Below, one piece after another: positions 1 through 39,667 of a stretch of 40,233 nt of DNA. The stretch lies in the sequence record MZ234021.1. The stretch is one strand, 5' to 3'. Numbering within the stretch: position 1 is the first letter of the stretch; each line of letters opens with the position of its first letter. A program made the translations under genes and the position numbers. Origin of the DNA: Escherichia phage vB_EcoP-101118UKE1. Under the pieces are notes generated by a model. It had not been told where the DNA came from. It was given only the letters and a program-made list of their open reading frames with translations, and searched no databases.

Positions 1-3000
1 ATGCAGGAACGAGAGGACCGCTCTACGTGGTTCGGTTTCGGTGCGGCTACAGAAGCTGAAGTGAAGAACTCTATGGTCGGCGTGGCTATCAGAGCTGGTC
101 AGACTGAGGACTCACTGGATGTCATTGGCGATGTGTTCAACCCAACCCGATGGAATAACCATAAGTGGTCTCGTGAGGAGCTGGACCAGATTCGTAACTC
201 TGGGGTTCTGCCTCAGTATTACGGAGTCATCACTGGTGGTTCCCCTCAGAACCTGACTGAGCTGATTAACTTGGCGCTTGAGAACCAGAAGTTGGACCAA
301 GAGAAGGCCAAGGCCGGGACTGGTGCTCAACTGGCGGCTGGTGTGATTGGTGCTGGCGTGGACCCTCTGACCTACGTTCCTATTGCTGGGCAGGTAGGTA
401 AAGGTGGGAAGCTAGCCAACAAGATGTTCACTGTGGCTGCTCAGTCTGGTGCTCTGGCTGGGGCATCCGAGATTGCTCGAACCTCAGTTGCTGGTGGGGA
501 CGCTCATGTGGCTGAGGCAATTATGGGCGGTGCTCTCTTCGGTGGGGGAATGACAGCTATCGGGGACGCTATCGGCAAGGCCTTAGGCAAGTCAACCAAC
601 GAGTTCGCCGGACCAGCCACACGTCTGGAAGCCCGTGAGACTGCACGTAATGTTGATGGTCAGGACCTGTCGCGTATGCCAATCCGTGAAGGAGAGGAGA
701 CCTTTAGTCATCAAGGCGTTAAGTTCGCTGACGTTCCGAATGAGCCGGGAAGTGTACGATTAGAAGACGGTTCAATCCTGATTGGTGAGAACCCTCTGAA
801 CCCTAAGACACGTCAAGTCTTTGACGAAGTGATTGAGCCTGAACGTGCCGCTGCTGGTGTGAACCTTGGTGGGCTGACTGAGATTGGCCTGAAGCTGCTT
901 CGGTCCGAGAACCCTGAGATTCGTGGAGTAGCTGCTGACTTAGTACGTTCACCGACTGGTATGCAGTCTGGGGCCTCAGGTAAAATAGGGACAACTGCGT
1001 CAGACGTATTCGAGAGACTTCGTGCTGTGGACCATCGGTTCTACAATGACATCGACGATGCGGTTACTGAGGCACTAAAGGACCCGTACTTCCAGACAGC
1101 ATTCTGGCGAGACTCTGGCGCATTCCGTCAAGACATCTATCAGCGCGTGTCTATGGCTATCGAAGATGGTAGCGGAAACCTGAAGGCTGAATTGACTCCG
1201 GGAGAACTGAAAGTCTATGACCTGCTGAAGAACCAGTTTGACGCCAAGCGTGAGATGATGGAGAACCCGGCGATGTTTGGTCGCCCAGACGCTCAGTCTA
1301 TCTTTCCGGGTAGCCGCTTCAAGGGAACATACGTCCCGCATGTGTATAGCAACCAGATGAAGGAGCTGTACATCAAGGAGCTTGGGAGTCCAGAGGCACT
1401 ACAGGAGGCCATCAAGAAGTCATGGTTGACCAGCTATGCGTCTCGACCTGAAGTCAAGAAACGCGTGGACGAGGCACTTTTAGAGGCTGACCCTACGTTG
1501 ACTCCAGAAGGACTTGCGGCTGCGGTCGATAAGTACGCCAACGATAAGGCTTATGGTATCTCTCACACCGAGCAGTTCGAGCGTTCATCCGTAATGGAGG
1601 AGAACATCAACGGGCTGGTTGGTCTGGAGAACAACAGCTTCCTTGAGGCTCGTAACCTGTTCGATAGCGATATGTCAATCGTTCTTCCTAACGGTCAGAC
1701 CTTCAGTGTCAACAACCTGCGTGAGTGGGACATGGACAAGATTGTCCCGGCCTACAACCGTCGAGTTAATGGTGATATTGCTATCATGGCTGGTACAGGC
1801 AAGACCACGAAGGAAATGAAGGACTTAGTTGAGACCATGATGAACAAGGCTGGCGATGACGGAAAGTTGAAAGGTGAAGTATCTACCTTACGTGACACCC
1901 TGAAGATTCTCACTGGTCGTGCTCGACGTGATGGTGCTGATGATGCGGCCTTCGCTACCGTGATGCGCACGATGACAGACCTATCGTTCTTCGCTAAGAA
2001 TGCCTACATGGGTGTTCAGAACTTAACGGAGATTGGTGGTATGCTGGCTCGTGGTAACGTTCGTGCAATGCTTCATGGAGTCCCAATTTTCCGTGACCTA
2101 GCCTTCCGTAACAAGAAGGTTGGGGCCTCAGAGATTAAGGACCTGCACAATGTTATCTTCGGTAAGGAACTGGATGACTCAATCCGTCCGTCTAAACAGG
2201 ATGTCATTGACCGTCTGCGATCTTACAGTGACCTCGGTCGTGGTACAGCTACAGCTCTGGGGACTGCCAAGTATTACACTGGCGAACTTGCAGTACGCTC
2301 TCCGTTCACTAAAGTCCTCAACGGTACGACCAACTACCTGTTAGATGCTGGACGTCAAGGCTTCCTGTCTGACATCGTGGAGCATAGCCTGACTGGTAGT
2401 AAGCGTAAGTTCGATGACCGCTGGCTGAAGACCGCTGGTATATCTGACGAGCAGTGGAGTGGAATTAAGTCCCTAATCCGTGAGTCAGTGACTCGTGGGC
2501 CAGACGGGAAGTACACCATCAAGGATAAGAAGGCGTTCAGTCAGGACCCAAGGGCTATGGACCTGTGGCGTATGGGTGACACCATCGCTGACGAGACGTT
2601 ACTCCGGCCTCATAAGCTGTCAAACATGGACGCCAAGGCTTATGGGCCTCTCGCTAAGACTGTCCTTCAGTTTAAGAACTTCGTCATCAAGTCTATCAAT
2701 GGGAGAACCATGCGAACCTTCTATAACGCCACGAAGAACAACAGAGCGATTGACGCTGCACTGTCGACCGTGATGTCTATGGGTCTGGCTGGTATCTACT
2801 ACATGGCTCAGGCGCATGTCAAGGCTTATGCTATGCAGGATGGTCGAGACCGTGACTACCTTAAGCAAGCTCTGGACCCAACGATGATTGGCTATGCGGC
2901 CCTGTCCCGTAGTTCACATCTTGGTGGCCTACTTGGGGTAGCTAACATTCTGGGAGGCATCGCTGGATATGAGGACACTAAGATGCTCCGTTCGTCTATC

Positions 3001-3303
3001 CTACCTCGTTCTCCTACAGATAAGCCTGAGCGTGCCATCGCGTATGGTGCAGCTACAAGTGACCCTGTGATGAATGTTGTTGGTAACTTCTTGGAGCAGG
3101 TTCCAGCTTTCGGATATGCTGCTAACGTTGGCGCTTCGGCTTACAACTTGGCTGGCTACCTCAAGGCTGATACTCGTGTCAACGAGCGTGACTACATGAC
3201 CGGGATGTATAATACGTTCCGTGAACTGGTTCCGAACGACCCCATTACCCAGAAGCTGCTGCTTGGAACGTTTGAGGAGCAAGGCATCCACATCAAGGAC
3301 TAA
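1..3303 (+). CDS. Internal virion (ejection) protein gp16, C-terminal 1100 aa; gene is split by the window boundary and continues from 39649..40233
   Basis: Long ORF colinear with T7 gp16 from about residue 220 onward (e.g. RSTWFGFG, TGGSP, VRSPTGMQSGASGK, GTYVPHVY, MDLWRM); stop TAA 3301-3303. Confidence 0.9.
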   Translation: MQEREDRSTWFGFGAATEAEVKNSMVGVAIRAGQTEDSLDVIGDVFNPTRWNNHKWSREELDQIRNSGVLPQYYGVITGGSPQNLTELINLALENQKLDQEKAKAGTGAQLAAGVIGAGVDPLTYVPIAGQVGKGGKLANKMFTVAAQSGALAGASEIARTSVAGGDAHVAEAIMGGALFGGGMTAIGDAIGKALGKSTNEFAGPATRLEARETARNVDGQDLSRMPIREGEETFSHQGVKFADVPNEPGSVRLEDGSILIGENPLNPKTRQVFDEVIEPERAAAGVNLGGLTEIGLKLLRSENPEIRGVAADLVRSPTGMQSGASGKIGTTASDVFERLRAVDHRFYNDIDDAVTEALKDPYFQTAFWRDSGAFRQDIYQRVSMAIEDGSGNLKAELTPGELKVYDLLKNQFDAKREMMENPAMFGRPDAQSIFPGSRFKGTYVPHVYSNQMKELYIKELGSPEALQEAIKKSWLTSYASRPEVKKRVDEALLEADPTLTPEGLAAAVDKYANDKAYGISHTEQFERSSVMEENINGLVGLENNSFLEARNLFDSDMSIVLPNGQTFSVNNLREWDMDKIVPAYNRRVNGDIAIMAGTGKTTKEMKDLVETMMNKAGDDGKLKGEVSTLRDTLKILTGRARRDGADDAAFATVMRTMTDLSFFAKNAYMGVQNLTEIGGMLARGNVRAMLHGVPIFRDLAFRNKKVGASEIKDLHNVIFGKELDDSIRPSKQDVIDRLRSYSDLGRGTATALGTAKYYTGELAVRSPFTKVLNGTTNYLLDAGRQGFLSDIVEHSLTGSKRKFDDRWLKTAGISDEQWSGIKSLIRESVTRGPDGKYTIKDKKAFSQDPRAMDLWRMGDTIADETLLRPHKLSNMDAKAYGPLAKTVLQFKNFVIKSINGRTMRTFYNATKNNRAIDAALSTVMSMGLAGIYYMAQAHVKAYAMQDGRDRDYLKQALDPTMIGYAALSRSSHLGGLLGVANILGGIAGYEDTKMLRSSILPRSPTDKPERAIAYGAATSDPVMNVVGNFLEQVPAFGYAANVGASAYNLAGYLKADTRVNERDYMTGMYNTFRELVPNDPITQKLLLGTFEEQGIHIKD

Positions 3304-3321
3304 ACTATCACTATAGGAAAC
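3299..3321 (+). promoter_or_regulatory. Phage RNAP promoter (phi17-type), +1 G at 3316
   Basis: ACTAAACTATCACTATA/GGAAAC; one of eleven copies of the core ACTATCACTATAGG. Confidence 0.8.
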
Positions 3322-3367
3322 TGGAGGCGCTACCATAGGTCTCCATTTAAATCACAAAGGAGGCATA

Positions 3368-5548
3368 ATGTCCACGATTACACAATTCCCTTCAGGAAAC
3401 ACTCAGTACAGGATTGAGTTCGACTACCTAGCCAGAACGTTTGTTGTTGTTACGCTGGTGAATAGCTCTAACCCTACCCTGAACCGTGTACTGGAAGTTG
3501 GTCGAGATTACCGATTCCTTAATCCAACGATGATTGAGATGTTGGCTGACCAATCAGGTTTCGACATCGTTCGTATTCACCGTCAGACTGGAACTGACTT
3601 AGTGGTAGACTTCAGGAATGGCTCAGTGTTGACAGCTAGTGACCTGACCAATTCAGAGCTTCAGGCTATCCATATTGCAGAAGAAGGTCGAGACCAAACG
3701 GTTGACTTAGCGAAGGAATATGCCGATGCTGCTGGCAGCTCTGCTGGCAACGCTAAGGATAGCGAGGACGAAGCACGCCGAATCACTGCGAGTATCAAGG
3801 CAGCTGGTAAAATTGGCTATATTACCCGTCGCTCCTTCGAGAAAGGCTTCAACGTTACAACATGGAACGAGGTCCTGCTATGGGAAGAGGATGGTGATTA
3901 TTACCGCTGGGATGGTACGCTTCCAAAGAACGTTCCCGCTGGTTCAACTCCTGAATCATCTGGTGGTATTGGGCTGAGTGCGTGGGTTAGTGTTGGTGAT
4001 GCGTCACTTAGAGCAAACCTGTCTGATAGTGATGGCGCTAAATACATAGGAAGTGGAGAAAGGACATTACTTGAGCACAACAATGATGTTTTGCACTCAA
4101 AAGACTTTCCAACACTGCAGGCAGCTATAGATGCATCTTTGCAAAAAAATGATCTACTGGTGTCTCCTGGCAATTATACTGAAAAAGTTACTATTGGAAA
4201 CGCGCAGTTAAAAGGTGTTGGCGGGGCCACGGTACTAAAAACTCCGGCAGACTTTACAAACACTGTTCAGGTTAATTTAGCTACACCTCATTGGCAATTC
4301 CGCCATAGTGGTGGTTTTGCTATAGATGGTTCCGGGACAACCGGGGCCGTAGGTATTAGTTTTGACCCGTCAGACCAATATTCCGGACGTCATAATTTTA
4401 GTGATGTATACATCCACAACATCAACAAGGCCATTCAGAAGCCTTCCGGGAACATCGGCAATACTTGGAGAAATATTGGGATATCTACGTGTGATTGGGG
4501 GTATTACGCGATTAGTGGCTCAGAGATGCATTGCGGGGCCGATACCCTCTACAATATCCACTTCGATGGCATCTCCACCTATGCAGTCTATCTAAACGGC
4601 ACTGTCGATAATGGCGGGGGGGGCGCATGGTGGCTTAAAGACTCCATTATTGAGGCTTCCGGAGGTGGCGGGATATACTTAAAAAGTAAATCGGGCGACT
4701 GTCCTACATCTCCATGCGGGGTATCCAATATATGGATGGAAGCGATCGCAACATCACCGGCTGTTCAGGTAGACGGCGTGGCGCAAAAACCGCGAGTTCT
4801 CAAGTTGGTAGACACAGCGATATTCTTTGCTGAGTATTCTTATCTCAACAACATCGAGCTATCCAACTCCAACTTAGTAACTTATGGTTGCCGTTTTGAC
4901 AACGCTGATGGCAATCAGGATATTGTCGTGGATGCACAAAGCACCATTGTAGCCCATGACGTGTATTTAAACGGCAGTTCTGGAAAGGACGTTATTGTGG
5001 AGTCCGTCGCATCGCAATCTGCAACGATAGCTACCACAAACTTATCTCTGAGGGGCAACTTAACAAGAGGGAGAGTATTTAATACGCCGACAGGGAATAA
5101 ATTAATGGCTATCACATTTGACTCAGGTAGCTATAATTTTTCTGGCAGCGGCACCGTTAACGGTTCGACTGTATCTGACGGACTTCACGCCGCTACATGT
5201 ACCGAATTTTCATTCCCCGGAGCCGGTTTATATGAAATGGTAGCGACAAGAACAACCATTACATCCGGTAGATGGTACGTGTGGGGAGTTAACTCACGCC
5301 TACAATCTGGCTCGGCGGATATTAGTATAACGTCAGGTATTACCATGGGTAGTGTTTACACAAAGCAGGGGGAGTGGATTAGCACTTTCGGTGTAGGAAA
5401 GGCATCTACCACTGGCACTGTAGCGCTATACGTTTCCACAGGAGGAGGTTCGGGAGCTACGGTCAGATTCAGTGACTTTTTCATCGCTGAGTTTACGACG
5501 CAAGCTCAGGCTTTATCTTTCGCCAATTCAAGGATGTCGTTATCATAA
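3368..5548 (+). CDS. Tail fiber / tailspike (gp17-like N-terminal adaptor, beta-helix-like C-terminal region)
   Basis: AAAGGAGG RBS 3356-3363; N-terminal ~150 aa resemble T7 gp17 (EFDYLARTFVVVTL, DYRF, LVDFRNGSVL, IAEEGRD); remainder unrelated to T7 fiber, Gly/Asn/Ser/Thr-rich with repetitive strand-like segments. Confidence 0.85.
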   Translation: MSTITQFPSGNTQYRIEFDYLARTFVVVTLVNSSNPTLNRVLEVGRDYRFLNPTMIEMLADQSGFDIVRIHRQTGTDLVVDFRNGSVLTASDLTNSELQAIHIAEEGRDQTVDLAKEYADAAGSSAGNAKDSEDEARRITASIKAAGKIGYITRRSFEKGFNVTTWNEVLLWEEDGDYYRWDGTLPKNVPAGSTPESSGGIGLSAWVSVGDASLRANLSDSDGAKYIGSGERTLLEHNNDVLHSKDFPTLQAAIDASLQKNDLLVSPGNYTEKVTIGNAQLKGVGGATVLKTPADFTNTVQVNLATPHWQFRHSGGFAIDGSGTTGAVGISFDPSDQYSGRHNFSDVYIHNINKAIQKPSGNIGNTWRNIGISTCDWGYYAISGSEMHCGADTLYNIHFDGISTYAVYLNGTVDNGGGGAWWLKDSIIEASGGGGIYLKSKSGDCPTSPCGVSNIWMEAIATSPAVQVDGVAQKPRVLKLVDTAIFFAEYSYLNNIELSNSNLVTYGCRFDNADGNQDIVVDAQSTIVAHDVYLNGSSGKDVIVESVASQSATIATTNLSLRGNLTRGRVFNTPTGNKLMAITFDSGSYNFSGSGTVNGSTVSDGLHAATCTEFSFPGAGLYEMVATRTTITSGRWYVWGVNSRLQSGSADISITSGITMGSVYTKQGEWISTFGVGKASTTGTVALYVSTGGGSGATVRFSDFFIAEFTTQAQALSFANSRMSLS

Positions 5549-6248: not shown

Positions 6249-6686
6249 ATGCTCGAACTTTTACGTAAAGCAATCCCGTGGCTGGTTGCAGGACTCCTGT
6301 TCTGTTCTGGCTACTGGGTGGCAGACAATAAGTGGGAGGCGAAGGTAAACAATGAGTACATCACGAAACTTGAGGCACGAGAGAATCAACGGGCTGCTGT
6401 CCAAGGTGAAATCAACAAAGTGTCAGCCGAGTGGCAAGACAAGATGTCCGCGCTGGAAGGCTCTACTGATAGGATTATTGCTGACCTTAACCGCGATAAC
6501 AAGCGGCTGCGCGTCCGAGTCAACACCTCAGGTCTCACCGAGTCAGATGTCAGTCGATGCTTCCCTAATGGTAGAGTCGAACTACACCCAGAAACTTCTA
6601 AAAGTCTTATCCGATTAACTCAGGAGGCAGACCTTAAGGAGAAGGCGCTTCAGGACACAATAAGGAGGCTCCAAGGTGTTAAGTGA
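6249..6686 (+). CDS. Rz-like i-spanin (gp18.5-like)
   Basis: GAGGAGGG RBS 6237-6243 before ATG 6249 (first in-frame start in the ORF track is 6234); MLELLRKAIPWLVAGLLF N-terminal TM, DLNRDNKRLRVRV as in T7 gp18.5. Confidence 0.85.
   Translation: MLELLRKAIPWLVAGLLFCSGYWVADNKWEAKVNNEYITKLEARENQRAAVQGEINKVSAEWQDKMSALEGSTDRIIADLNRDNKRLRVRVNTSGLTESDVSRCFPNGRVELHPETSKSLIRLTQEADLKEKALQDTIRRLQGVK
6352..6618 (+). CDS. Rz1-like o-spanin lipoprotein (gp18.7-like), embedded in +1 frame of Rz gene
   Basis: 88-aa ORF inside the Rz gene; PRWKALLIGLLLTLTAITSGCASES signal/lipobox pattern matching T7 gp18.7. Confidence 0.7.
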   Translation: MSTSRNLRHERINGLLSKVKSTKCQPSGKTRCPRWKALLIGLLLTLTAITSGCASESTPQVSPSQMSVDASLMVESNYTQKLLKVLSD

Positions 6687-7113
6687 TTACTACAAAGTGG
6701 ACCCGGCTAGTCCATCCGGTCTGGTCTCCGTTAGGACTGGAAAGCCTGTGGGGACATTAAGTCGGATGGGATATTGGATAGTACAGACACGAAGTCTAGG
6801 CAGTAAGCGGGCCCATCGTGTGATATGGGAACTAACCAATGGTCCTATACCGCATGGTATGCAAATAGACCACATCGACAGGAACCCTAGCAATAATACC
6901 TTAAGTAACTTACGGCTCGTTACTGCCGCTGAAAACACTTGGAATACTGGTAGCCATTATGACTCTAAGACAGGAGTGAAGTGCGTTACCCGTCACCAGA
7001 ATGGTTATAGGATTCAGGTTAAACGCGGGAATGCCTATATGCGAACAACACGTCCCACTTTAGAGGAGGCTATCGCTGTCCGGGACCTAATGCTGGAGGG
7101 ACTATATGTCTAA
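6676..7113 (+). CDS. HNH homing endonuclease
   Basis: GTG start with AAGGAGG RBS 6662-6668; motif [20 protein letters not shown] (HNH) followed by AP2-like C-terminal region; overlaps Rz end and terminase start. Confidence 0.85.
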
Positions 7114-15794: not shown

Positions 15795-15974
15795 ATGTAT
15801 CAGAACACTATCAACTTCGAGCGCATCCGTGAACGTCAGCAGACTGAAGGTTACATCCCTAAGGGCCGCAAGCTGAACAAGACTAAACGTGGCGGTGGTA
15901 TCAAAGGCGCTTTCAGAAACGCTGAAGGTAAAGACTCTCTGGTCAACCAAGAGAAATACTTCGTAGGAGCATAA
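15795..15974 (+). CDS. gp1.1-like small basic protein (59 aa)
   Basis: Not in ORF track (<60 aa); KGRKLNKTKRG matches T7 gp1.1; GGAG upstream. Confidence 0.7.
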   Translation: MYQNTINFERIRERQQTEGYIPKGRKLNKTKRGGGIKGAFRNAEGKDSLVNQEKYFVGA

Positions 15975-15978
15975 CTCT

Positions 15979-16242
15979 ATGGGCCGACTTTATAGTGGCA
16001 ACCTCAACGCTTTCAGAGCAGCGTGTAACAGGCTTTATCAGTTAGACTTCTGCGTGATACAGCAGGACTGGTACGACGCGCATCTTCGGAAAGAGTGCAT
16101 GAGACTTCAAGTCGAGGACCGAGCTGGTAACATCTTCGCGCTTGAGACCTTCGCACACTACGATGAAGACGTGCTGTATAATACCGCAACCGACTACCTC
16201 AACGGTCTCGCTGACCATCTCGACACATGGAGCAAAGAATAA
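15979..16242 (+). CDS. gp1.2-like protein (host dGTPase inhibitor family)
   Basis: MGRLYSGNLNAF...DWYDA...HYDEDVLYN closely matches T7 gp1.2. Confidence 0.85.
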   Translation: MGRLYSGNLNAFRAACNRLYQLDFCVIQQDWYDAHLRKECMRLQVEDRAGNIFALETFAHYDEDVLYNTATDYLNGLADHLDTWSKE

Positions 16243-17330
16243 TGACAACTATCAAAACTAACCCTCACCGCGCTGTAGATTACTCTGAGTCTGGAATTAA
16301 GAAGGCACTGGAATCAGCCGGGTCTCTGGAAGCTGAAGTGAAGTACGATGGTGTGCGCCTGAACCTCCTGGTCCTGCGTGAAGGTGAGACCTACTGGCTT
16401 AGCCGCGAGTCGAAACCTCTACCAGCCTTGGAGTGGATGAACTCTGAGTTAGGTAATGCGTGGACCCAAGCTGACTGGCGATGGTTCCTGCGTCAATCCG
16501 GCTACGAAGGTGTGGGCATGATGATTGATGGCGAGGTCATGGTCAAAGGTGTAGACTTCAACACCTCCTCAGGTCTCATCCGAACGAAGTGGCTCAAGCC
16601 TAACAACGAGGAGTTCGCTGAATACTATTCGCCGGCGACTGGTGGAAAGAAGCTCCCGTTCTGGGGATCCCGGTCACGACTTCAGGTTGTGGTATATGGC
16701 GTTGTCGATATGACAACCATAGCAGACCCGAAAGCAGAAGGTCCTATCCATAGCGTAACCCGCCTGAAGGCTGAAGCTATCGTCCCTCTCCTCCAGAAAT
16801 ACTTCCCGGAAATCGACTGGGTTCTGTCTGAGTCACACACGGTCTATGACCTTGAGTCGCTCAACTCCCTGTACGAACAGAAGCGTCTGGAAGGACATGA
16901 GGGTCTGGTAGTCAAGGACCCACTGGGTAAGTACAAGCGTGGCAAGAAGTCTGGCATGTGGAAAATGAAGCCTGAGGAGACCATCGACGGGACCGTGTGT
17001 GGCCTCGTGTGGGGGACTCCTGGTAAGGCTAACGAAGGTAAGGTCATCGGCTTTGAGGTTCTACTGGAGGATGGCATGGTGGTCAACGCCTGTGGTCTGA
17101 CTGAAGAACAGAAGGACGAGTTTACGGCTAAGGTAAAGGAGGACACGCTTGCTGCGGTTGGCATCTTTGCGCCGTACGGCATTGGTGGTAACGAACCTTG
17201 CTTCGATAACCCATACGAAGGCTGGCAGTGTGAAGTCCTCTTCATGGAGAGGTTCCCTGATGGCTCCCTTCGTCACCCCAGCTTCAAGTGCTGGCGTGGA
17301 ACCGAAGACAACCCAACGGTGAAGTCATGA
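16242..17330 (+). CDS. ATP-dependent DNA ligase (gp1.3)
   Basis: KYDG adenylation motif, GHEGLVVKDP, FPDGSLRHPSF; start chosen at ATG 16242 (TAATG overlap, MTTIKTNP as in T7); ORF track begins 16227. Confidence 0.93.
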   Translation: MTTIKTNPHRAVDYSESGIKKALESAGSLEAEVKYDGVRLNLLVLREGETYWLSRESKPLPALEWMNSELGNAWTQADWRWFLRQSGYEGVGMMIDGEVMVKGVDFNTSSGLIRTKWLKPNNEEFAEYYSPATGGKKLPFWGSRSRLQVVVYGVVDMTTIADPKAEGPIHSVTRLKAEAIVPLLQKYFPEIDWVLSESHTVYDLESLNSLYEQKRLEGHEGLVVKDPLGKYKRGKKSGMWKMKPEETIDGTVCGLVWGTPGKANEGKVIGFEVLLEDGMVVNACGLTEEQKDEFTAKVKEDTLAAVGIFAPYGIGGNEPCFDNPYEGWQCEVLFMERFPDGSLRHPSFKCWRGTEDNPTVKS

Positions 17331-36932: not shown

Positions 36933-39215
36933 ATGGCTAGTAATATTGAATCAGCTCTGGCTAATCGGACTATGGGTCGTGGCAGGGCTCCGGGTAAAAC
37001 TATCGCCGTCAACTATCAAGCAGCCAGCGTTCAGGCTCCAACTGGTGACTCAGGTCTGGCTCGGGCGCTAACCAACTTCGTTGAGTCTGGTACTGGATTA
37101 TACAAGCAGTTCAAAGACGAGGAGAAGACACGGGCCGACGAGCGGTCTAACGAGATTATCCGTAAGCTTACACCTCAGCAAAGACGTGAGGCTATCCAGA
37201 ACGGTACATTGCTGTATCAGGATGACCCTTACGCTATGGAAGCACTTCGAGTCAAGACGGGCCGTAACGCTGCCTTTGCGGTTGATGACGAGATTAACGT
37301 TAAGATTCAGAACGGTGAGTTCCGTACACGTCAGGACATGGAAGAGTATCGCCACCAGAGACTTCAGGACGCCGCTAAGTCCTATGCTGAAGAGGCGGGT
37401 ATTAACCCTACCGACGAGTTCTTCCAGCGCGGGTTCAACGATAACATCACAGACCGAAACATCGCTATCTATGGGTCTTTCAATAAGTATTTCAGCAAGC
37501 AGTCTGAAGAGACAGCAATGTTGAACACTCGTATTGAGATGAACTCGTTCCTTAACGATGGGGACCTGATGCGTTCGCCTGATTCTGGAAAGACCTTCAT
37601 GGCCTACCTTCGGGATGGACTGACGACTGCTGCTATCCCTTCGGACCAGCGAGCACGAGAGGTAATCACCCAGACGGTCCGTGACGCAATCCAGAAGTCA
37701 GGAGGCTCAAACTTCCTACAGCAAGTCCGTGGTGAGCGTATCAACCTTAACGGTGTGGATGCTACAGTCGAAGAGATTGTAGGACCAGATGTCTTCAACG
37801 CTGCTATTGTAGAGGCCCAAGGTACTGAGTACAAGCTGGTGGCTAAGTATCAGGAAGACTTGTCGTTAGGCGTTCAGTCTGCGATTCTTCAGGATGACCC
37901 AACCATCGGTCTGGCCCAGATTCAGAAACTCAAGGAGCAGAACAACCTGCTTCAACCGGGTGAAGAACTCACGCCTCAGCGTCAGATGCTTATTAATGCC
38001 GAAGCCAGCTTACTGGAAGCGGTCAAGCGTAAGTCTGCTGAACAAGCGAAGGAGAACACTAAGTTAATCCAGACCCAGAACAAGCAACTGGTCATCGACC
38101 AAGTGTATCAGCGACGTCTGGCTGGTGACAACGTATCCACCAACTATGAGGACCTTCCGGTCTCTGACGCTACAGGGGAGTTCAAGCGTTCAGACATGAA
38201 CAACTATGCGTCTTCCAAGCTACAGCAGATTGACCAGATGGACATCCCTGAGGCTGCTAAGGACGCTCAGAAGGTGGCATTGTTAAGAGCTGACACTAAT
38301 AACGGTCCGTTCCGTAATGCCTTCCAGACGCTGACTCAGGACGCTGCTGGTGAGTGGCAAGCTGCGGTCATCCGTGGACAGTACGACCCAGATAAGATGC
38401 AACGCTTCGAGTCTCTTCGTCGTGCCTACACTCAGGACCCTTCAAGTTTCGCTGCTCTGTATCCTGACCAAGCTCAGTTGTTCTCTACATTCGACCAGAT
38501 GGACAAAATGGGTCTAGACCCTCAGACGATGATTGAAGCTGATAAGCAAGCTGCAAGTCAAAGCCGTGAGATGCGCATGGAGTCAGACAAGGCGTGGCAG
38601 GAGTTGAAGAACGACTCCAAGAACACCCAGTTGTCTCGCCTCCCAACGTCTCTGGACTCAAGTGCTCGTAAGGTCTGGGACTCATGGTACTATCGTACAG
38701 GTAACGCTGACGCTGCAACGCAGCAGACTCAACGCTGGCTGAATGAGAACACCGTAACGTTCCAGTCTGAAGGTTCTGACGGTAAGTCCATCGGCATGGT
38801 GTCCAAACACCAGCTTATGGTCGGGGATAACCCAGAGTCGTGGCAGGTGGGTCGAGACATTATAGACACCGCTCGTCAGCAGCTCATTAAGGCCAACCCT
38901 TGGGTAGTGAACTCTCAGTTGTCCGTTGTTGAACAGAACGGCTCTATCTTCCTCCAAGACGCTACGGGGACTATTCGTATTCGATACGATAAAGAACTTG
39001 TAGGTAAACTCTACCGCGAACAACAGCAGAAGGTACAAGATGCCGCATATGCTCAGGCAGAACGTGACGCTAACAAGCGAGCGCGTATCGTCGGGACTAA
39101 AGCTGCTGGTGACAAACGTCGAGCTGACCGAGAGGCCAACATCGAGAAGCGCGGTGGGATGTACAATGACGTCTCACTGGAGGGTATCGCAAACGCACTA
39201 ATCGGTAAGGAGTAA
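36933..39215 (+). CDS. Internal virion protein C (gp15)
   Basis: 760 aa, AGAGGAGG RBS; size and position as T7 gp15. Confidence 0.9.
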   Translation: MASNIESALANRTMGRGRAPGKTIAVNYQAASVQAPTGDSGLARALTNFVESGTGLYKQFKDEEKTRADERSNEIIRKLTPQQRREAIQNGTLLYQDDPYAMEALRVKTGRNAAFAVDDEINVKIQNGEFRTRQDMEEYRHQRLQDAAKSYAEEAGINPTDEFFQRGFNDNITDRNIAIYGSFNKYFSKQSEETAMLNTRIEMNSFLNDGDLMRSPDSGKTFMAYLRDGLTTAAIPSDQRAREVITQTVRDAIQKSGGSNFLQQVRGERINLNGVDATVEEIVGPDVFNAAIVEAQGTEYKLVAKYQEDLSLGVQSAILQDDPTIGLAQIQKLKEQNNLLQPGEELTPQRQMLINAEASLLEAVKRKSAEQAKENTKLIQTQNKQLVIDQVYQRRLAGDNVSTNYEDLPVSDATGEFKRSDMNNYASSKLQQIDQMDIPEAAKDAQKVALLRADTNNGPFRNAFQTLTQDAAGEWQAAVIRGQYDPDKMQRFESLRRAYTQDPSSFAALYPDQAQLFSTFDQMDKMGLDPQTMIEADKQAASQSREMRMESDKAWQELKNDSKNTQLSRLPTSLDSSARKVWDSWYYRTGNADAATQQTQRWLNENTVTFQSEGSDGKSIGMVSKHQLMVGDNPESWQVGRDIIDTARQQLIKANPWVVNSQLSVVEQNGSIFLQDATGTIRIRYDKELVGKLYREQQQKVQDAAYAQAERDANKRARIVGTKAAGDKRRADREANIEKRGGMYNDVSLEGIANALIGKE

Positions 39216-39217
39216 AC

Positions 39218-39667
39218 ATGAAGAACGGGACAGCCAGTGAGAGACTGGCAGAACTGTCAGCAGGTGAAGAGTCTGGCTGTATCCGATTCACAGGCCACTT
39301 AGACGGAGAAGGATACGGAAGGATAATGGTCAACAGGGTCAAATACAGAGCGCATAGACTTGCTTACGAGCTTGCTAACGGTCCTATACCAGATGGGTAC
39401 GTTGTTCGCCATAAGTGCGACAACCCGTCCTGTATAAACCCAAGACACCTTGAAGTCGGTACCCAAGCTGATAACATAAAGGATAAGGTGACTAGAGGTC
39501 GCCAAGCGTTAGGATGCTTCATAGGATCGTCTAAGCTCACTGAGGAAAGTGTGCGTGATATAAGGTCCAGCAACCTAAAGGTTTCACTTTTGGCTGAACG
39601 CTATGGAGTGAGTACGGTTTCTATTAGAAATATCTTGAGGAGAAAGACATGGCGACACGTGGAGTAA
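39218..39667 (+). CDS. HNH homing endonuclease inserted between gp15 and gp16 (paralog of 22866..23267)
   Basis: TAAGGAG RBS; RHKCDNPSCINPRHLEVGTQADN motif; 3' end overlaps gp16 start. Confidence 0.85.
   Translation: MKNGTASERLAELSAGEESGCIRFTGHLDGEGYGRIMVNRVKYRAHRLAYELANGPIPDGYVVRHKCDNPSCINPRHLEVGTQADNIKDKVTRGRQALGCFIGSSKLTEESVRDIRSSNLKVSLLAERYGVSTVSIRNILRRKTWRHVE

Follow-up and report, generated by a model that had tools for sequence, protein, structure and literature searches.

Architecture of the tailspike

The genome of Escherichia phage vB_EcoP-101118UKE1 (MZ234021.1), analysed here as one stretch of 40,233 nucleotides (the window), is that of a Kayfunavirus (Autographiviridae, Studiervirinae), a T7/K1F-like podovirus, probably in circularly permuted form. 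At 3368-5548 on the plus strand lies an open reading frame (ORF) that a preliminary description of this DNA had taken for a tail fiber gene; the ORF is real, encodes 726 residues and occupies the slot of T7 gene 17 in a T7-like genome that has gp11/gp12-type tail proteins. We consider it likely that its product is the sole receptor-binding tailspike of this Kayfunavirus, that it binds and most probably hydrolyses the O25b O-antigen of E. coli, and that its C-terminal part is a mobile cassette. The protein is composed of four modules, namely a gp17-type adaptor, a Tail_spike_N domain, a capped beta-helix and a beta-sandwich resembling a carbohydrate-binding module, whose positions are given below together with the linker that separates the second from the third (boundaries of secondary structure were taken from an AlphaFold2 model; pLDDT, predicted local distance difference test).

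3368..5548, plus strand: tailspike gene (gp17 position), ATG start, 726 residues plus stop
3368..3814, plus strand: gp17-type N-terminal particle-attachment (adaptor) domain, residues 1-149 (PF03906)
3818..4000, plus strand: small Tail_spike_N beta domain of the CBA120 TSP1/gp66 type, residues 151-211 (PF18668, E 1.5e-19), modelled as short strands
4001..4066, plus strand: low-confidence linker or neck with the module-exchange junction, residues 212-233 (pLDDT <50 for model residues 62-84)
4067..5062, plus strand: capped right-handed parallel beta-helix, residues about 234-565, putative O-antigen binding/cleaving domain; cap helices at residues 234-256, beta-strand coils at residues about 261-563
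4529..4741, plus strand: conserved beta-helix core with candidate catalytic residues H388 (4529-4531), D392, E429 (4652-4654), W456 and E458 (4739-4741)
5096..5545, plus strand: C-terminal beta-sandwich resembling a carbohydrate-binding module, residues 577-726, ending in a short helix; sandwich proper at residues 577-709, terminal helix at residues 712-721

The assignment of the N-terminal adaptor is based on a match of PF03906 (Phage_T7_tail) to residues 10-116 (E 3.7e-16; score 59.6 bits, with the threshold at 25.2) and on the T7 gp17 chains 7boz, 8dsp and 8e4g, which align to residues 6-116 only with E about 1e-16 to 1e-17. The likeness to T7 gp17 had been described as confined to the first ~150 residues, and it is indeed N-terminal only; however, the block common to Kayfunavirus spikes extends to residues about 215-225 and includes a second Pfam domain. 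This second domain, Tail_spike_N, belongs to the genus-conserved N-terminal block. Chains of CBA120 TSP1, TSP3 and TSP4, whose N-termini also carry Tail_spike_N, align at residues 145-229, and PDB entry 9vvr ('tail spike protein', 843 residues, 18 chains in the deposit) has nearly the same sequence in residues 1-225 and is unrelated beyond. Over its full length the protein is covered by PHROG 27367, 'tail fiber protein', at 1334 bits.

The fold of the remainder was predicted as a monomer of residues 150-726 with 34 homologues, and the resulting model reaches a pLDDT of 86.7 and a predicted template-modelling score of 0.78. When the model is compared with the PDB by Foldseek, the best matches are CBA120 TSP4, TSP3 and TSP2, the Klebsiella K2-2 TSP, the Sf6 and HK620 tailspikes and other depolymerases, with E down to 2.4e-13, and the fold is that of a parallel (pectin-lyase-like) beta-helix. 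Moreover, a wide-family profile of 71 members finds, in the first coils only, the Sf6 endorhamnosidase tailspike (E 3.6e-10), 7chu, AlgE epimerases, GH55 and GH28. A T7-type fibrous shaft and tip was considered for this part of the protein and is refuted, given that the T7 chains stop at residue 116 and that what follows is beta-helix and beta-sandwich. The structural neighbours of the tailspike are trimers, and the protein is very likely a homotrimer present in six copies per virion.

Several expectations of the preliminary description can be compared with these results. It had anticipated a beta-helix in place of a T7-like fibrous tip, and this is what AlphaFold2 and Foldseek return. It had assigned all of the remaining ~575 residues to the beta-helix, which is correct for residues about 234-565; the last 150 residues instead form a separate beta-sandwich, and residues 151-211 are Tail_spike_N. 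Its two-part architecture is likewise right in joining an adaptor to a beta-helix, yet there are four modules, and the junction lies at residues about 215-226 rather than at 150. The Gly/Asn/Ser/Thr-rich composition that it noted is found in residues 151-726 (G 12.0%, S 11.1%, T 9.0%, N 6.2%), as are the GGGG tracts (residues 416-419 and 432-435, with a GGG at 692). The motifs NIGISTCDWG (residue 369) and IYLKSKSGDC (residue 436) are present as quoted, and 'NIH.INKAI' was slightly misquoted, the sequence being YIHNINKAI at residues 348-356. The glycine runs and many residues next to them are invariant among homologues, and for this reason the runs and motifs are not chance features.

Relatives and exchange of the C-terminal module

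The closest counterpart is the gp17 of Kayfunavirus LM33P1 (phage LM33_P1; 'Phage tail fibers', LT594300, O25BPHAGE1_P1_GP44), which has the same length of 726 residues and the same flanking genes. The two genes are 99.4% identical in nucleotides over their whole length, and the proteins differ at eight residues (A136S, T140A, S219A, N410D, T556A, Y589H, Q667P and S717A, the residue of the window given first), such that, to judge from the sequences, the tailspike is effectively the LM33_P1 gp17 protein. Nine further records, mostly Kayfunavirus isolates, are 98.9-99.4% identical over the whole gene, and one more record stands at 96.0%. The siblings 22664BS1 and 101136BS1 stand at 99.3%. In this sense the protein is not new: its gene nearly duplicates LM33_P1 gp17, and an adaptor joined to a beta-helix is the norm in Kayfunavirus.

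A different pattern is seen among records that match only one part of the gene. More than 100 others, mostly Escherichia and Salmonella phages, match from nucleotide 1 to about 645-658 of the gene only. Conversely, in Golestan, phiEc3, phiEc4, 22664BS2 and other Kagunavirus siphophages the match covers nucleotides 677-2174 only, at 87-89% nucleotide and 91-93% amino acid identity. The Kayfunavirus N-terminal matches stop at nucleotides 643-658 and the Kagunavirus C-terminal matches start at nucleotide 677. In the protein alignment, identity to phage IMEP24, which has the same adaptor, drops at residues about 215-226, where identity to phiEc4, which has the same C-terminal module, climbs. The motif DGAK.IGSG.R...ND(I/V).HS.D(F/Y).TLQ.A lies at this switch and is present in the tailspike, in IMEP24 and in phiEc4.

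The same C-terminal module is found in other surroundings as well. In the Kagunavirus tailspikes (VB_EcoS-Golestan, phiEc3, phiEc4, 22664BS2 and fEg-Eco06; 661 residues) the beta-helix and beta-sandwich (residues about 226-726 here) follow an unrelated N-terminus of about 160 residues for siphovirus tail attachment, and the gene follows that of a J-like tail protein. In the 1021-residue tail fibre of Kuravirus ES17 (ES17-TFP; PMC7885116), the C-terminal ~510 residues correspond to residues 225-726 of the tailspike at 64-66% amino acid identity, whereas the N-terminal ~510 residues lie outside the common module; the ES17 paper had already remarked on the similarity to LM33_P1 and on a putative depolymerase domain (PMC7885116). 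Metagenomic and NCBI contigs add versions of the module, at up to 83% amino acid identity, that follow a P22-type head-binding domain (PF09008) or belong to other Tail_spike_N proteins. A phmmer search of 1.84 billion representative proteins gave 297 relatives at E <=1e-3 and 197 at <=1e-10, and in nearly all of these a variable N-terminus is followed by a C-terminal unit of beta-helix plus beta-sandwich. No prophage copy of the module was detected by megablast or blastn in 5,426 complete E. coli genomes.

These alignments mark residues about 226-726 as a putative mobile host-range cassette, which would have been exchanged between unrelated phage groups at the conserved junction motif. The pattern is that of standard tailspike cassette exchange, as has been reported for spikes of O16 specificity from the BASEL collection (PMC11990801).

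Three observations on individual carriers can be added. The IMEP24 spike (MZ648215, 3001-5184) has an adaptor that is 97.7% identical over nucleotides 1-643, and its C-terminal module, though from the same family, is only 38% identical in amino acids; this looks like allelic replacement within one module family, presumably with a different O-antigen specificity. One carrier of a P22-type head-binding fusion is a contig of 447 kb, and another is a record of Citrobacter freundii. Lastly, MZ417522 (Mycolicibacterium phage J1, 24,953 bp) holds at 15821-16882 a copy that is 71% identical over 72% of the length of the module; such a module is implausible for the stated host, which suggests contamination or mislabelling.

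The tailspike can also be placed among proteins of known structure or function. The CBA120 TSP2-4, Sf6, HK620 and P22 tailspikes have its fold and its layout of N-terminal adaptor, beta-helix and C-terminal beta-sandwich; the CBA120 TSPs additionally have Tail_spike_N in common with it, and Sf6 shows remote sequence homology in the first coils. However, identity within the beta-helix is only 9-17%, and catalytic residues are not transferable from these proteins. T7 gp17 and the K1F gp17 endosialidase share the type of N-terminal attachment domain and the genomic slot. T7 gp17 continues into a fibrous shaft with a small tip domain, and K1F gp17, the type Kayfunavirus spike, carries a sialidase in the same slot followed by a C-terminal self-cleaving chaperone domain. 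In the tailspike no Pfam match to sialidase or Peptidase_S74 chaperone domains was found at E up to 1. The protein is best described as a typical O-antigen tailspike, of the kind seen in CBA120, Sf6, HK620 and P22, on a T7 gp17 adaptor.

Likely ligand and mode of action

What glycan would such a tailspike recognise? The title under which LM33_P1 was published, as cited in other literature, ties this phage to the ST131-O25b:H4 clonal complex. The locus tags of its GenBank record read O25BPHAGE1. The LM33_P1 paper of Dufour and colleagues from 2016 is said to describe a phage that infected O25b strains only and that was inhibited by O25b lipopolysaccharide. Phage 101118UKE1 itself (MZ234021) was isolated on the O25b-positive strain DSM101118. 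O25b-positive strains were also the isolation hosts of three other carriers of the C-terminal module, the podoviruses 22664BS1 and 101136BS1 and the siphovirus 22664BS2 (91% amino acid identity in the module), of which 22664BS1 and 22664BS2 came from one strain, DSM22664 (PMC8614997). ES17 likewise infects ST131 (PMC7885116). The polysaccharide-dependent host range that the preliminary description had proposed is supported by the near-identity to LM33_P1 and by the O25b-positive hosts of the siblings and of the module-bearing siphovirus; it had left the choice of polysaccharide wide, and O-antigen, not capsule, is the most likely target, with O25b as the probable ligand.

The chemistry of this ligand limits what an enzyme could do to it. 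The O25B repeat unit consists of two glucose, two rhamnose (one of them 2-O-acetylated) and one N-acetylglucosamine residue, and uronic acid is absent (PMC9516715). Therefore, a lyase mechanism by beta-elimination is unavailable if O25b is the substrate, and the options that remain are hydrolysis, deacetylation or binding only. Candidate residues were sought by counting conservation over 71 homologues with identity down to 21%. E458 and G390 are kept in all 71, H388 and W456 in 68 each, R341 in 66, N362-I363-G364 in 66-69, K358 in 61 and D392 in 52, while E429 is kept in 63 and is Q in the other 8. In the structural model these residues lie at or beside the long strands of successive coils. 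They may form a shared catalytic center, in which E429 and E458 would be the candidate acid/base pair, and the most likely function of the protein is recognition of the O25b O-antigen together with its hydrolytic cleavage.

We hypothesize that the modules would act together in the following manner. Residues 1-149 would anchor the spike in the tail, at the gp11/gp12-like proteins, and residues 151-233, comprising the small Tail_spike_N domain and a flexible neck, would serve as a spacer. Along its groove the beta-helix (residues about 234-565) would bind the lipopolysaccharide of O25b-type E. coli by its long O-antigen chains and most probably hydrolyse these as an endoglycosidase, with E429 and E458 as candidate acid and base and H388 and D392 nearby; in this way the phage could cut a path to the outer membrane. 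The beta-sandwich (residues 577-726) could add glycan contacts, stabilise the trimer, or both. No candidate for a second receptor-binding protein stood out among the window ORFs of at least 100 residues, those scanned being other virion and packaging proteins.

Several points weigh against hydrolysis of O25b as the function. None of the tailspike and all 35 alignment members scanned has a Pfam family over residues 226-726, and sequence searches of the PDB, with the single sequence and with two close-family profiles, gave no significant match to the beta-helix. Because residues 226-726 have neither a Pfam family nor a directly matching solved structure, the catalytic assignment is drawn from conservation only. 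The structural model is that of one subunit, and both the trimer and an Sf6-like site between subunits lie outside it. Neither a biochemical characterisation of an O25b tailspike nor an activity of close relatives was found in the literature searched, a search that the original LM33_P1 paper lay outside. Lastly, the ES17 protein, 64% identical, was shown by experiment to bind heparan sulfate and mucin, the sole interaction that its authors could detect (PMC7885116). It is rather unlikely, though conceivable, that the C-terminal cassette binds mammalian heparan-sulfate or mucin glycans besides the O25b O-antigen; if it did, LM33_P1-type phages would be kept at the mucosa of the gut or urinary tract, the habitat of ST131. 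A separate suggestion, held with the same reserve, is that the cassette could define a glycoside-hydrolase family with the E429/E458 pair that has so far neither a Pfam entry nor a structure.

How do other explanations account for these observations? One is that the beta-helix reversibly recognises the O25b O-antigen, or another glycan, without catalysis, as would be consistent with the binding reported for ES17-TFP. However, the tight polar and acidic cluster of E458, E429, H388 and R341 is kept in members that have diverged to 21% identity and that presumably differ in glycan specificity, so that its conservation suggests shared chemistry over specificity contacts. Moreover, almost every phage protein among the closest structural neighbours is an enzyme, and a spike that only binds is in our judgement decidedly improbable. 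An alternative is that the protein is an O-acetyl esterase, a beta-helix enzyme like the CE8 pectinesterases, that would strip the 2-O-acetyl group from O25b rhamnose and leave the backbone uncut. The 2-O-acetyl-rhamnose of O25B would provide a substrate, the pectinesterase 8tne is weakly similar, and for ES17-TFP a match to a 'putative pectinesterase' (E 7e-3) has been reported (PMC7885116). Membership in CE8, as raised by the ES17 paper and by the 8tne match, was nevertheless rejected, the latter match having E 0.37 and covering a generic cap motif only, with the catalytic coils outside it, and deacetylation is accordingly very improbable.

A further proposal, made for the ES17 homologue by analogy with the K5 lyase, is that the target is a capsule (K-antigen) or a heparosan/heparan-type polysaccharide and that the protein is a lyase; the heparan sulfate binding of ES17-TFP is in keeping with it. 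Among the structural neighbours, however, 2x3h comes only 23rd, at 7% identity, and dozens of hydrolases, epimerases and adhesins are at least as close, so the fold similarity behind the analogy is non-specific. The isolation hosts of module carriers have the O25b antigen in common, and the O25b repeat offers no uronic acid for beta-elimination. Capsule types within ST131 are heterogeneous, which likewise speaks against a capsule lyase. The K5-lyase analogy was set aside, and a lyase is the explanation to which we give the least credence. Hydrolytic cleavage of the O25b O-antigen thus remains the preferred function.

The range of E. coli that the phage kills would be set by the tailspike. Since its relatives are directed at O25b:H4-ST131, a pandemic multidrug-resistant clone, the C-terminal cassette would be a ready-made O25b-recognition module for phage engineering, diagnostics and enzyme therapy.

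Expression signals and genome setting

The region in front of the tailspike gene contains two signals, of which the upstream one recurs in the window:

3357..3363, plus strand: Shine-Dalgarno sequence AAGGAGG, 4 nucleotides before the tailspike ATG, read directly from the sequence
3300..3321, plus strand: phage-RNA-polymerase-type promoter-like element CTAAACTATCACTATAGGAAAC, 22 nucleotides, 46 nucleotides ahead of the tailspike start; it overlaps the gp16-like gene at that gene's end
3300, 8968, 12379, 17567, 18441, 27220, 30059 and 31046, plus strand: copies of the promoter-like element (CTAAACTATCACTATAGG...)

AAGGAGG is a strong ribosome-binding site. The 22-nucleotide element occurs in eight copies in the window at no more than 3 mismatches, all on the plus strand, and in none of 100 shuffles; the eight-copy consensus probably represents a set of phage RNA polymerase promoters. 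Its core resembles the T7 promoter core, ACTCACTATAGG, and because of this resemblance CTAAACTATCACTATAGGAAAC is read as a phage RNA polymerase promoter serving the tailspike gene. In a scan of the window, sigma-70 promoter-like sequences were no more numerous than in shuffles. The terminator scan of the window gave five terminator-like sites versus a shuffle mean of 1.9 (standard deviation 1.6), with none between the tailspike stop codon and the holin start.

The gene order is gp16-like internal virion protein, tailspike, holin, small terminase, Rz spanin, HNH endonuclease and large terminase, and further on in the window lie the gp11/gp12-like tail proteins (PHROG 446 and 457), portal, capsid and internal virion proteins. 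The first 25 kb are 96.5% identical over 96% to vB_EcoP-22664BS1 (MZ234009), and the coordinate origin is shared with that record. The gp16-like protein (1-3303), which contains a lytic transglycosylase domain, begins at base 1 of the window, and its PHROG profile is matched only from position 214. The N-terminal part of the protein is probably encoded at the other end of the window (about 39.67-40.23 kb), and the assembly would therefore be circularly permuted.

Unlike LM33_P1, the genome contains extra HNH endonuclease ORFs. The homing-endonuclease-like ORF at 6676-7113 on the plus strand (145 residues, GTG start; PHROG 99, E 7e-41) lies between the Rz spanin and large terminase genes and overlaps each at one end; in LM33_P1 no gene is annotated between Rz and terminase, which abut. 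The second HNH endonuclease-like ORF, at 39218-39667 on the plus strand (149 residues; PHROG 59, E 1.4e-36), directly follows the gene of the gp15-like internal virion protein (36933-39215). Together the two ORFs may account for much of the extra length of this genome over that of LM33_P1 (40,233 versus 38,979 bp).

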